Shown: positions 17,021-59,272 of the stretch, one piece after another | Numbering within the stretch: the first letter of the stretch is position 1 | Layout: each line of letters starts with the position of its first letter | Source: Escherichia phage AV122 | DNA: 64,000 bases | Strand: one strand, 5' to 3' | Sequence record: OR352952.1 | The notes under the pieces: generated by a model | Seen by the model: the letters and a program-made list of their open reading frames with translations, nothing else | The model's database searches: none | What the model was told of the DNA's origin: nothing | Translations under genes and position numbers: made by a program

Positions 17021-17847
<827 letters not shown>

Positions 17848-17858
17848 ATTATCTCCTA

Positions 17859-18191
17859 TTAAAAAGGATCAGGAACATATCCGCTAGCTTTAATCATTTT
17901 AATTAACGTTACCATTCCTTTGTTAACTGCTCGTGAGATTTCATCAAAAACTTCATCACTAAAAAGTTCTAACACGCCCTTCTGAACTTTTAATTTACAG
18001 CCAACAATTTCTTCATCGCCTATAGTAAATTCATTACCACCAATTCCACCGAAAAACTTAATTACACCAGTTAACTGTCTTCCACGAGAATATGGGTCGT
18101 GTGATAAAGTAATATGAGTCACCCCGGGTACAGTTTTAAATTGGCAGCGAATATTTACTTGTGAAATTCCAGTTACATGAATGTCAGACAT
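17859..18191 (-). CDS. hypothetical protein (frd.x cluster)
   Basis: 110-aa ORF. Confidence 0.6.
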   Translation of the reverse strand: MSDIHVTGISQVNIRCQFKTVPGVTHITLSHDPYSRGRQLTGVIKFFGGIGGNEFTIGDEEIVGCKLKVQKGVLELFSDEVFDEISRAVNKGMVTLIKMIKASGYVPDPF

Positions 18192-56525: not shown

Positions 56526-56735
56526 TTAAATTACATGATTATTTATAATAAATTCTCGCGGAACGTTAAAATATCCGATTTTAGTTAATATAACAACATC
56601 ACCGTTAATAATTACCGGAGAATAATCTTCTGGAGCATTAAATTTCCAATGGGCTCTAATATTATATCCATCAGAACCAAATGCTCGAGTAGCCGGTCTC
56701 CCGGCTTTTTGCCACGCGTAGAAATCAAATTTCAT
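56526..56735 (-). CDS. hypothetical protein (soc.1 position)
   Basis: 69 aa. Confidence 0.5.
   Translation of the reverse strand: MKFDFYAWQKAGRPATRAFGSDGYNIRAHWKFNAPEDYSPVIINGDVVILTKIGYFNVPREFIINNHVI
56540..56547 (-). promoter_or_regulatory. late promoter box for soc
   Basis: TATAAATA on minus strand 31 nt upstream of soc ATG. Confidence 0.6.
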
Positions 56736-56932
56736 TTTGAATGCTCTATAATTAATTTTAAGGCTTCTTCGCTGACAAAAATTTCGTCAGGACCTTCTTC
56801 TATAACCCAATCAACCATACGAAGTTGATTAGTTAAGAGCTCACATACGAGCTCCTTGTTATAATCTTTAAATAGCTGGTTAATACGTTTCTTATGGGCT
56901 TTCTTAAGCTGACGCTTATTTAAACGAGCCAT
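56732..56932 (-). CDS. hypothetical protein (soc.2 position)
   Basis: 66 aa. Confidence 0.5.
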   Translation of the reverse strand: MARLNKRQLKKAHKKRINQLFKDYNKELVCELLTNQLRMVDWVIEEGPDEIFVSEEALKLIIEHSK

Positions 56933-57450
56933 TAATAACCTCGGTCTTGACGAGCGAAGTTTTCAGCATTTTTCAGGTAATAAAGTTTAAAGATTTCTTC
57001 AGCTGACATTCCAAGAGCAATAAATTTATTCATGAAAAAGTGAAATTGGTCAATCAGTTCAAATTTAATTTCAAGCTGATCTTCGGGAGATAAATCTTGA
57101 ATTTTCTTGGATTGCATTTCAGAATAACGTTTCTTCCAAGGTTTCCATACAGCAGAAGCTTCTTTTTCACCATTACTCATACCACCAAGAGAAGTATATA
57201 GTTCGCGAGTTTCATCTGCGATATAATCGTCTTGGTTTCGCAACCAAGCAAGAACTTCTCCTGCGGTTTCAAGTGAATCAGGATGACGATTTGTTTCTGG
57301 TTTATCATTAGCCAAACGAATCTGTAAATGCCGCTGCATATCAAGCATAACCTGCAGTGGGTCAATATTGTGCATAATATTCTCAGCATATGCACGATTT
57401 GCTTTATCAACACCTTCGATCAAATGAGCACATTCATTAAAGTAAGCCAT
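56932..57450 (-). CDS. 56: dCTPase/dCTP pyrophosphatase gp56 (MazG-like)
   Basis: 172 aa from ATG 57450 (MAYFNECAHLIEGVDKA) with AAGGA SD; track start is GTG extension. Confidence 0.9.
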   Translation of the reverse strand: MAYFNECAHLIEGVDKANRAYAENIMHNIDPLQVMLDMQRHLQIRLANDKPETNRHPDSLETAGEVLAWLRNQDDYIADETRELYTSLGGMSNGEKEASAVWKPWKKRYSEMQSKKIQDLSPEDQLEIKFELIDQFHFFMNKFIALGMSAEEIFKLYYLKNAENFARQDRGY

Positions 57451-57521
57451 TATTTTTCCTTTCAATTCATGGGTTAGTAGATTAATTATACAATAAATAT
57501 ATAAAGCAATAAGGAGGACAT

Positions 57522-57722
57522 ATGGTACAAAAATTAATGGCACTTGTTAATGCCATAAAAGGTAATAAAAAACGTATAGCTTTTACTATTTCTGCTATGG
57601 TAGGAATTTTACTCTGGAACTTTATTCTATCACCTGTTGCAATTGCGCATGGTATTAATATTCCAGTAGTTACTCTTGATACATTTGTAGATTTAGCATT
57701 TGCTTTAGTTGGGTTGATTTAA
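57522..57722 (+). CDS. small hydrophobic protein on plus strand between 56 and 61
   Basis: 66 aa; strong SD AAGGAGG 4 nt before ATG; two predicted TM-like segments. Confidence 0.45.
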   Translation: MVQKLMALVNAIKGNKKRIAFTISAMVGILLWNFILSPVAIAHGINIPVVTLDTFVDLAFALVGLI

Positions 57723-58747
57723 ATCTTAGCATATTTAGATAGCCGCATTTTAGCCATCAACCCCTGGGCAATATTATTTTTCATATATTCCATAATTTGT
57801 TCAGGGGTTGCACCTTCCTTTCTAATCATATCATTGACATCTTTTGATTTCCAGGGAGATTTATCCCAAAACATAACCCTTTCTCCTGCATCAACTAATT
57901 TAGTCATTCGTTTGATAGTGTCAGGGTGACGAGGTTCATTATCTAAAACCCACACTCGTCTATCTTTAAATGGAACAACTTCTAGGTCTAATTGACCACC
58001 TGTAATAGCTATACCATTTTCAATAAAAAGTGAATCTATAGGTCCTTCTAGAACATATACATCACCATCTTTAACTCGTTCAACACCGTAAATTTTTGTT
58101 GCCTCAGGATAAGCTTTAATGGTGATATATTTTTGAGGAGCATCTTTCTTTAATGCACGTCCTTGAAAAGACTCAGCTTTTCCATTAGCATTATAAATTG
58201 GAATAACAAGACGAGGCTCAGAAATTTCCTTTTTGTATGTTCCCGGTGCTATGCTATTAACTAATTTAGGCCATTCGGTTGTAAACCAAAGATATTTCCA
58301 TTTATCCTTTGGAATACAACGAGCTTTTACATATTTTATAATTGGATGGTCTTCCGCCAGTTTATCTAATCTAACACATGACGGAAGAGATTTAATTATT
58401 TTCTTCTCAGGTTGCTTAGGAAGTTCTTTAGGTTTTTCTACTGGACGACTTTTACCTTTTTCTTTTCTTATTTCAAAGATATACTCACGATATAAATCGG
58501 GTTCAAACTCCTTTAAATATATTCCGATTGGTGCATGATAGTTACAGTTATAACAATGAATATTTCCTTCATTGTTATCACCATAATACCATCCACGAGC
58601 TTTATTCTGGTCGGTTTTTGAATCTCCACAAACAGGACATCTAAACCGCAATTTAAAAGTTGAACTATTATTTACTTGTGTGAATTTAGGTAAATGAGCT
58701 AATGCACGGTATGCAAACTCATTATCAATCCAAGGTATTGATGACAT
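57719..58747 (-). CDS. 61: DNA primase gp61
   Basis: 342 aa; zinc ribbon CPVC...CYNC and TOPRIM-like region; recognised as T4 gp61. Confidence 0.95.
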   Translation of the reverse strand: MSSIPWIDNEFAYRALAHLPKFTQVNNSSTFKLRFRCPVCGDSKTDQNKARGWYYGDNNEGNIHCYNCNYHAPIGIYLKEFEPDLYREYIFEIRKEKGKSRPVEKPKELPKQPEKKIIKSLPSCVRLDKLAEDHPIIKYVKARCIPKDKWKYLWFTTEWPKLVNSIAPGTYKKEISEPRLVIPIYNANGKAESFQGRALKKDAPQKYITIKAYPEATKIYGVERVKDGDVYVLEGPIDSLFIENGIAITGGQLDLEVVPFKDRRVWVLDNEPRHPDTIKRMTKLVDAGERVMFWDKSPWKSKDVNDMIRKEGATPEQIMEYMKNNIAQGLMAKMRLSKYAKI

Positions 58748-58914: not shown

Positions 58915-58960
58915 ATTAACCTCTATTCATAAAAGCATTAAAAATTTGGTCATCAATAGA
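58912..58960 (-). repeat. 49-nt repeat copy A at 3' end of 118-aa ORF
   Basis: Matches 59270-59318 with 3 mismatches. Confidence 0.75.
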
Positions 58961-59272
58961 TGGCGCAGTAATATTTTCTGCATCATTTAGCAAATCATTA
59001 ATTTCATCAGATAGCATAACACATGTACCTTTATTTCCTGTAATTGTTACTGCACAATTACGAACGTTTTCTTTATCAAATTTTAGGTTAATATTTTCGT
59101 AGTGAAAATCCTTTAATGCCGAATATATCTTTAAAATGAAATTGTCTTTTACTACAATAAACCCAACCTCACTATTAAAACGCGGTTCATGGAAACTGTA
59201 ATAAACCTTTTCATCTATAAAATCGTATGAAATTTTTTCCATTTTTAAATATGAAAATTCAGAACTATACAT
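58916..59272 (-). CDS. hypothetical protein, truncated paralog of next ORF
   Basis: 118 aa; C-terminus SIDDQIFNAFMNRG shared with 208-aa ORF. Confidence 0.55.
   Translation of the reverse strand: MYSSEFSYLKMEKISYDFIDEKVYYSFHEPRFNSEVGFIVVKDNFILKIYSALKDFHYENINLKFDKENVRNCAVTITGNKGTCVMLSDEINDLLNDAENITAPSIDDQIFNAFMNRG

Follow-up and report, generated by a model that had tools for sequence, protein, structure and literature searches.

The plus-strand open reading frame between gene 56 and the primase gene 61 of Escherichia phage AV122 is almost certainly a genuine T-even gene of the phrog_2024 family, dam.1, and its product is very likely a small protein of the cytoplasmic membrane. On profile comparison, dam.1 is also a probable remote and truncated relative of the 3TM GTA-type holins (PF11351), corresponding to their last two hydrophobic helices. 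The window, i.e., the whole stretch of 64,000 nucleotides analysed here (record OR352952.1), is a segment of a Tequatrovirus (T4-type) genome; it maps onto phage G4507, to which it is approximately 97% identical, from 126.7 kb via the rIIA end to 23 kb. Within the window, dam.1 runs on the plus strand from an ATG at 57522 to 57722 and encodes 66 amino acids plus a stop codon (MVQKLMALVNAIKGNKKRIAFTISAMVGILLWNFILSPVAIAHGINIPVVTLDTFVDLAFALVGLI), an assignment based on the ORF call, the phrog_2024 match, the annotation of phage T4T and selection tests. An earlier, sequence-only reading had placed a hydrophobic 66-aa plus-strand ORF between gene 56 and the primase gene, behind a strong Shine-Dalgarno (SD) element with a 4-nt spacer, and both statements hold. 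The SD sequence TAAGGAGG occupies 57510-57517 (plus strand) and is separated from the ATG by acat, and a GGAGG or GGAG element lies at the equivalent site in all genera compared. The coordinate 57451 given in that reading is the first base of the intergenic region between gene 56 and dam.1, not the start of the ORF.

The left neighbour of dam.1 is gene 56 (dCTPase; 56932-57450, minus strand), from which it is separated by 71 nt, and the right neighbour is gene 61 (DNA primase; 57719-58747, minus strand), which is convergent with dam.1. The stop codons of these two convergent genes overlap by 4 nt in the sequence TTAA (57719-57722), and the same overlap is present in T4, AR1, VR26 (second copy), Shf125875, CkP1, S16, Moon and L029; in fact, it is seen wherever dam.1 directly abuts the primase gene. 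The 56-61 region as a whole is 99.6% identical to that of several E. coli and Shigella phages, with matches in 553 phage records. Farther to the left, the segF homing endonuclease gene, which lies between soc and gene 56 in T4, is absent from AV122, and two small ORFs (69 and 66 aa) occupy its place at 56526-56932; other records label them soc.1/soc.2 or 'virion structural protein'. To the right, a 118-aa ORF without a T4 counterpart lies between 61.1 and 61.2 (58916-59272, minus strand); its AR1 equivalent is AR1_036, and its C-terminus (SIDDQIFNAFMN followed by RG or KG) repeats that of the adjoining 208-aa ORF.

Membership in the phrog_2024 family (listed under 'unknown function') is indicated by a full-length profile match, by the conserved position and by conserved residues. 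The profile match has an E value of 1.4e-31 and places residues 2-66 of dam.1 on profile positions 1-65 of 65, and all 19 diverse family members that were compared (19/19) match the same profile. The gene is already catalogued as a conserved hypothetical gene, uncharacterised, under several names: it is dam.1 in the T-even phage T4T (ADJ39749) and RB69ORF029w in RB69-type records (Shf125875 and ime09 carry the wording 'similar to RB69ORF029w'), and it is annotated as a hypothetical protein in AR1, RB51-type and many other records. At the DNA level it is found in approximately 500 records and at the protein level in 698. Our search of the literature for the gene under the names dam.1 and RB69ORF029w, and for ribosome profiling and start-site maps of T4, returned nothing on it. 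When 1.84 billion representative proteins were scanned in full with HMMER, no more than 19 clusters reached E ≤0.001; hence, the family is small and restricted to phages. A scan for related loci with the single protein returned 5 near-identical loci.

Beyond Tequatrovirus, homologues are 49-55% identical in Mosigvirus and Gaprivervirus and approximately 30% identical in Karam-, Gelderland- and Moonvirus and in one metagenomic T4-like contig. They stand convergent with the primase gene, on the strand opposite to it, in at least six genera of Tevenvirinae (Tequatro-, Mosig-, Gapriver-, Karam-, Gelderland- and Moonvirus) and in the metagenomic T4-like contig. The protein is conserved even at 25-30% identity, its length varying only from 57 to 70 aa, and across 23 sequences the residues W32, N33, P38 and G44 are invariant and P48 and G64 nearly so. 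Two subfamilies can be recognised, which have the invariant W-N, P and G in common. In VR26, the two occur side by side as tandem paralogues (L004 2495-2901), one copy per subfamily, and the second subfamily is the type found in Klebsiella phages. In phage RZ, an HNH homing endonuclease gene is inserted between the dam.1 homologue and the primase gene (L008 2872-3621); the gap between genes 56 and 61 is an insertion hot spot. Purifying selection on the coding sequence is likewise apparent. Among 14 Tequatrovirus copies there are 27 variable sites, distributed 9/3/15 over codon positions 1/2/3, the pN/pS ratio is 0.19 and all amino acid changes are conservative; between genera, dN/dS ranges from 0.12 to 0.35 for moderately diverged, unsaturated pairs.

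These values bear on the question of whether the ORF is only a by-product of a regulatory intergenic region, shaped by divergent promoters, by the end of the primase transcript and by the proximity of oriA, and yields no functional protein. The region does carry such signals. A MotA-type element, which from the published consensus we take to be the middle promoter of gene 56, lies on the minus strand at 57485-57508, with the box TGCTTTA at 57502-57508, a spacer of 11 nt and the -10 sequence TATAAT at 57485-57490; its T4 equivalent, TGCTTAC-12-TATAAT, stands directly upstream of gene 56 and abuts the end of dam. In addition, a terminator-like hairpin (ATGGCATTAACAAGTGCCAT followed by TAATTTTTGT) is found on the minus strand at 57527-57556, antisense within codons 6-12 of dam.1 and approximately 160 nt past the primase stop codon, and this hairpin could end primase transcripts in Tequatrovirus. 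The ORF is also left without annotation in the T4 reference record. Against this, the hairpin is present in T4 and in the window and in none of the other genera, the protein is conserved in length and in its invariant residues, dN/dS is well below 1, and the gene occurs as tandem paralogues and in unrelated genomic contexts. The by-product explanation is therefore very improbable, and a spurious ORF is rejected on the selection tests and the distant homologues.

Two further readings of the nucleic acid itself were considered and dropped. The hairpin at 57527-57556 cannot be a conserved dual-use element, since it is confined to Tequatrovirus, and a known RNA element was rejected since a search of the region against Rfam at E values up to 1 gave no family and a single, meaningless miRNA match of 20 bits. 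Within the 3' end of gene 61 (approximately 57761-57815), GC-rich arms CAACCCCTG and CAGGGGTTG pair as a long-range stem in the minimum free energy fold, and comparable stems are predicted in VR26 and Shf125875. The conservation of these arms may be purely protein-driven, since they encode conserved primase residues.

The second question raised by this locus concerns dam. The sequence-only reading had taken T4 to carry dam near the 56-61 interval, which the T4 record confirms: dam lies between gene 56 and dam.1, and dam.1 lies between dam and gene 61. It had also been noted that the window holds no adenine methyltransferase; consistent with this, tblastn with T4 Dam found no homologue in the window (best E value 2.3), and DPPY is absent from all open frames of at least 80 aa, among which only SPPY, SPPF and NPPW occur, in unrelated frames. 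The search was extended beyond the window in the close relative G4507, where no dam was found either (tblastn, best E value 1.3 over 1-135 kb). From these observations it might be supposed that a cassette swap had put dam.1 where T4 has dam, a replacement that the sequence-only reading considered possible: neither the window nor the G4507 genome contains dam, and dam.1 occupies the 56-61 gap. However, T4, T4T and other dam-carrying phages have dam.1 alongside dam, and five other genera have dam.1 without dam at this locus; the swap is thus extremely improbable, and dam.1 as a replacement for dam was rejected. The sequence-only reading had itself named, as the first part of what would speak against it, an annotated copy of the ORF in a T-even genome, and the T4T record provides one. 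In T4, the counterpart of dam.1 lies at 17738-17938 (NC_000866), within a dam-61 stretch of approximately 310 nt that has no annotation in RefSeq; it also encodes 66 aa and differs by the conservative changes A25T and I45V (97% identity).

A three-way alignment makes the nature of the difference clearer. Compared with T4, the window and AR1 lack the dam cassette; to the right of the cassette, dam.1, its SD sequence and the ATAAATA motif upstream of it are kept, and to the left the promoter region of gene 56 is kept. On this alignment, the dam difference between AV122 and T4 is one of presence or absence of the dam cassette. The contiguous, dam-less arrangement of 56, dam.1 and 61 is found in 397 phage records and T4-type dam in 184, so approximately two-thirds of Tequatrovirus records have the dam-less layout, and no methyltransferase was found at the 56-61 locus in the other genera examined. 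By parsimony, dam would be an insertion in part of the Tequatrovirus lineage. A 249-aa insert in phage RZ was considered as a displaced dam and rejected, as it is the HNH endonuclease described above.

Based on its translation, the membrane-like character first suggested for the ORF is well supported. In scans with 19-residue windows, residues 19-42 form the only strongly hydrophobic segment, and the best window covers residues 23-41 with a Kyte-Doolittle mean of 2.0. The charges are distributed unevenly, with +5/0 in the N-terminal 18 residues and 0/-2 (two Asp) in the C-terminal 24. An AlphaFold2 model built from a 23-sequence alignment contains helices at residues 2-12, 16-42 and 52-63, with a mean pLDDT of 80.7. 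Similarly, TMHMM predicts one transmembrane (TM) segment, residues 21-41, in the RB69 protein RB69ORF029w (PMC1524935, supplement 2). The predicted architecture is therefore a basic N-terminus (residues 1-18), a TM helix (approximately 19-42), an HG-x-x-hydrophobic-P turn and a hydrophobic C-terminal helix (52-63); across the family, the turn is conserved as H/Q-G-hydrophobic-x-hydrophobic-P. In the topology that we propose, the basic N-terminus would be cytoplasmic and residues 19-42 or thereabouts would span the membrane, which would bring the conserved G-x-x-hydrophobic-P...D/E turn to the periplasmic face. The C-terminal helix would then either rest on the outer leaflet or turn back into the membrane from the periplasm.

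With regard to expression, a late-promoter-like sequence of putative function, AATAAATA, is present on the plus strand at 57492-57499 and matches the T4 late promoter sequence TATAAATA at 7 of 8 positions. According to Nolan et al. (PMC1524935), the late consensus spans positions -13 to -6, and T4-like phages show little conservation at its first T, where A as well as T is common. If the motif is functional, this spacing would place the transcript start near 57505 and give a leader of 17 nt with a near-perfect SD element. In all 8 lineages examined, a motif of the type (A/T)TAAATA stands 14-22 nt upstream of the ATG, including phages with an intergenic region as short as 23-40 nt. It is also kept in T4, in which the dam cassette lies between it and the middle promoter of gene 56. 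Its general form is N-ATAAATA, with G or C also found at the first base in other lineages; in Karam-, Gelderland- and Moonvirus it reads TATTAAATA, which is further from the consensus. Only nine NATAAATA sites occur on the plus strand of the window, and four of them are followed by an SD sequence and an ATG, namely those before genes 34, 36, t and dam.1. A sigma-70-type site was looked for on the plus strand and not found.

It is worth noting how these elements are arranged. AATAAATA on the plus strand sits inside the spacer of the gene 56 middle promoter on the minus strand, so that the 71-nt gap offers a neat example of divergent middle- and late-promoter-like elements that are interleaved. 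In VR26 the elements are arranged otherwise, with the box overlapping the start of CATAAATA, and both are kept. On the strength of the motif, we lean towards late transcription of dam.1 from a weak variant late promoter, NATAAATA. The departure of the TATTAAATA genera from the consensus speaks against late expression, as does the RB69 site, since the late-promoter HMM of Nolan et al. gives no late promoter upstream of RB69ORF029w in RB69 (PMC1524935).

The family has one link in sequence to proteins of known type, and this link leads to holins. Searches with dam.1 of AV122 found no Pfam family even at an E value of 10, and Pfam and NCBIfam gave no significant family assignment. Distant family members, in turn, give weak but consistent hmmscan matches to the C-terminal part of PF11351 and to the holin PHROG 3427; on PF11351 these reach 13.6-17.3 bits, which is below the Pfam gathering cut-off of 24.8 bits. 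With tblastn, a 97-aa bacterial family member finds annotated holins, three of which are bona fide PF11351 proteins adjoining an endolysin, a lysozyme or a peptidase M15A. The profile comparison is stronger. With hhalign, 19 family members aligned to 4 holins gave a probability of 81%, and 44 members aligned to 74 holins from viral contigs gave a probability of 96.3% (P 1.5e-9, score 56.3), a result to be read with caution, since short hydrophobic helices can give misleading profile similarity despite clean controls. In these controls, reversed profiles scored 12 and the highest score among 120 column shuffles, half of them made within the hydrophobic core only, was 22.1. The alignment pairs residues 17-66 of dam.1 with the last two hydrophobic helices of the PF11351 holins, and the positions common to both are N-F/Y-x3-P, P-x-x-D/E and a terminal G-L. 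The type member of PF11351 is rcc00556 of Rhodobacter capsulatus, a putative holin for the release of the gene transfer agent (PMC3423380).

Other searches gave no further lead. PADLOC had no match for dam.1 and one match of 13.7 bits for a distant member, and a sequence search of the PDB returned only weak matches to TM helices of nicotinic receptors, at E values of 0.1 or worse. A fold search with the AlphaFold2 model against viral structures found only family members, all other matches having E values above 0.1, and tblastn of P0122 against phages gave no match.

Taking these results together, our best guess, a tentative one, is that dam.1 is a late, holin-like accessory membrane protein. 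According to this proposal, the protein would form oligomers in the inner membrane at a late stage of infection and affect membrane permeability or the timing of lysis. The main holin of T4 is gpT, and T4 t mutants do not lyse; for this reason, dam.1 cannot be a sufficient holin. In its general features, dam.1 agrees with holins in being a small protein with at least one predicted TM helix, whereas the charged C-terminal tail expected of them is missing, as the C-terminus reads ...AFALVGLI and the charges are N-terminal. The proposal is further weakened by the lack of an adjoining endolysin gene in T4-like phages and by the siphophage homologues, which stand between Endonuclease VII and tail-like genes with no clear lysis cassette.

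The genomic contexts of the distant homologues were also compared. On the siphophage contigs L028, L114, L115 and L117, which represent four independent contexts, the homologue starts within or just after the Endonuclease VII gene, and on three of the four it is followed downstream by two conserved proteins, one of approximately 180 aa, which weakly matches a minor tail protein PHROG, and one of approximately 105 aa; these homologues are inside late/structural modules. The same trio, in another order, is found in E. coli prophages, and the E. coli homologue is the last gene at the prophage end, adjoining the host gene alkA. In a Raoultella chromosome and two metagenomic contigs, the homologue is directly followed by a gene with a RelA_SpoT domain (for the Raoultella chromosome and one of these contigs, L023 6001-6811 and L025 681-2049), which may encode a small alarmone synthetase acting as the toxin of a toxin-antitoxin or defence module. 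The homologue on L023 and L025 is 97 aa long and carries an extra N-terminal extension. One distant member lies three genes upstream of a lysozyme gene. For contig L026, we considered whether a small TM gene, the 180-aa and 109-aa genes and the lysozyme gene could form a lysis cassette of holin, spanins and endolysin. However, neither a TM helix nor a lipobox is present in the 180-aa and 109-aa proteins, and the 180-aa protein weakly matches a minor tail protein PHROG; the lysis-cassette reading was therefore rejected. In general, the contexts of the distant homologues fit late expression and do not single out lysis.

Some of these contexts could point instead to a role in particle production, in which dam.1 would be a late membrane protein without a lytic function, serving as an anchor or organiser for DNA packaging and resolution or for tail assembly. 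The tie of all four siphophage contexts to the Endonuclease VII gene, the tail-like ~180-aa and ~105-aa proteins in three of them and the recurrence of the trio in E. coli prophages would agree with such a role. In T4-like phages, however, dam.1 lies apart from the tail genes and from gene 49, which encodes Endonuclease VII, the siphophage association may reflect no more than shared late timing, and we know of no relative of dam.1 with a role in particle production. On balance, this role is improbable.

Others of these contexts recall phage exclusion. Here, dam.1 would be an inner-membrane protein that protects the envelope or excludes superinfecting phages, like T4 Imm and Sp or siphophage Cor/Llp, and it would keep the DNA of competing phages out of the cell or interfere with another of their steps at the envelope. 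The moron-like position of homologues at the end of E. coli prophages by alkA, the neighbouring RelA_SpoT-domain gene of defence-island kind in Raoultella and the two metagenomic contigs, and the early-gene neighbourhood of the T4 locus, which also holds sp, are in keeping with this, as would be a small membrane protein whose conserved turn, in the predicted topology, faces the periplasm. On the other hand, in T4-like phages dam.1 lies on the late strand behind a late-like motif, with no early promoter or sigma-70-type site on the plus strand, the siphophage homologues are within late/structural modules, PADLOC gave no match, and the only sequence link found is that to holins. An exclusion function is therefore considered unlikely.

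If the holin-like proposal is carried one step further, all T-even-type phages, T4 included, would encode an unrecognised second protein of the holin family in the form of dam.1, a generalisation that we regard as doubtful. In this scenario, dam.1 would derive from the 3TM GTA-type holins by reduction to a minimal pair of helices. Its late promoter would be deliberately weak, and the protein would act beside gpT, RI and RIII to fine-tune the permeabilisation of the membrane, the timing of lysis or lysis inhibition. It could have escaped notice through its absence from the T4 reference annotation and through the near absence of detectable tryptic peptides.

The value of these results is modest, in that an apparent gene replacement proved to be an ordinary presence/absence polymorphism of dam, a finding that is ordinary for phage genomics. 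Nevertheless, the T4 RefSeq record has no dam.1 feature though T4T and hundreds of relatives annotate a homologue, and omics studies that rely on that annotation are consequently blind to the gene. In addition, the tentative tie to a known holin family provides a cheap, testable hypothesis for one T4 gene of unknown function.

Finally, dam.1 can be set beside the systems to which it has been compared. With T4 Dam it has only its location in common, and there is no sequence similarity between the two. The dam.1 genes of T4 and T4T are 97-98% identical to the AV122 ORF and agree with it in position, orientation and stop overlap with the primase gene; the difference is that dam is missing on the left in AV122, so that the promoter-like motif interleaves with the middle promoter of gene 56. 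Class II holins and pinholins, such as S21-68 of phage 21, are small late membrane proteins of approximately 65-70 aa. Compared with S21-68 by description only, dam.1 is similar in size and may also form a two-helix hairpin, whereas it has no charged C-terminal tail, its second hydrophobic segment is of only approximately 15 residues with two Asp, and lysis by T4 already relies on an unrelated holin, gpT. In relation to the GTA_holin_3TM proteins of PF11351, dam.1 is half the size, without the N-terminal part of approximately 60 residues and without the charged C-terminal tail, and it ends at the G-L motif; its neighbours are a dCTPase and a primase, whereas the phage members of PF11351 examined have an endolysin neighbour. 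In both dam.1 and these holins, a basic residue stands before the first helix.
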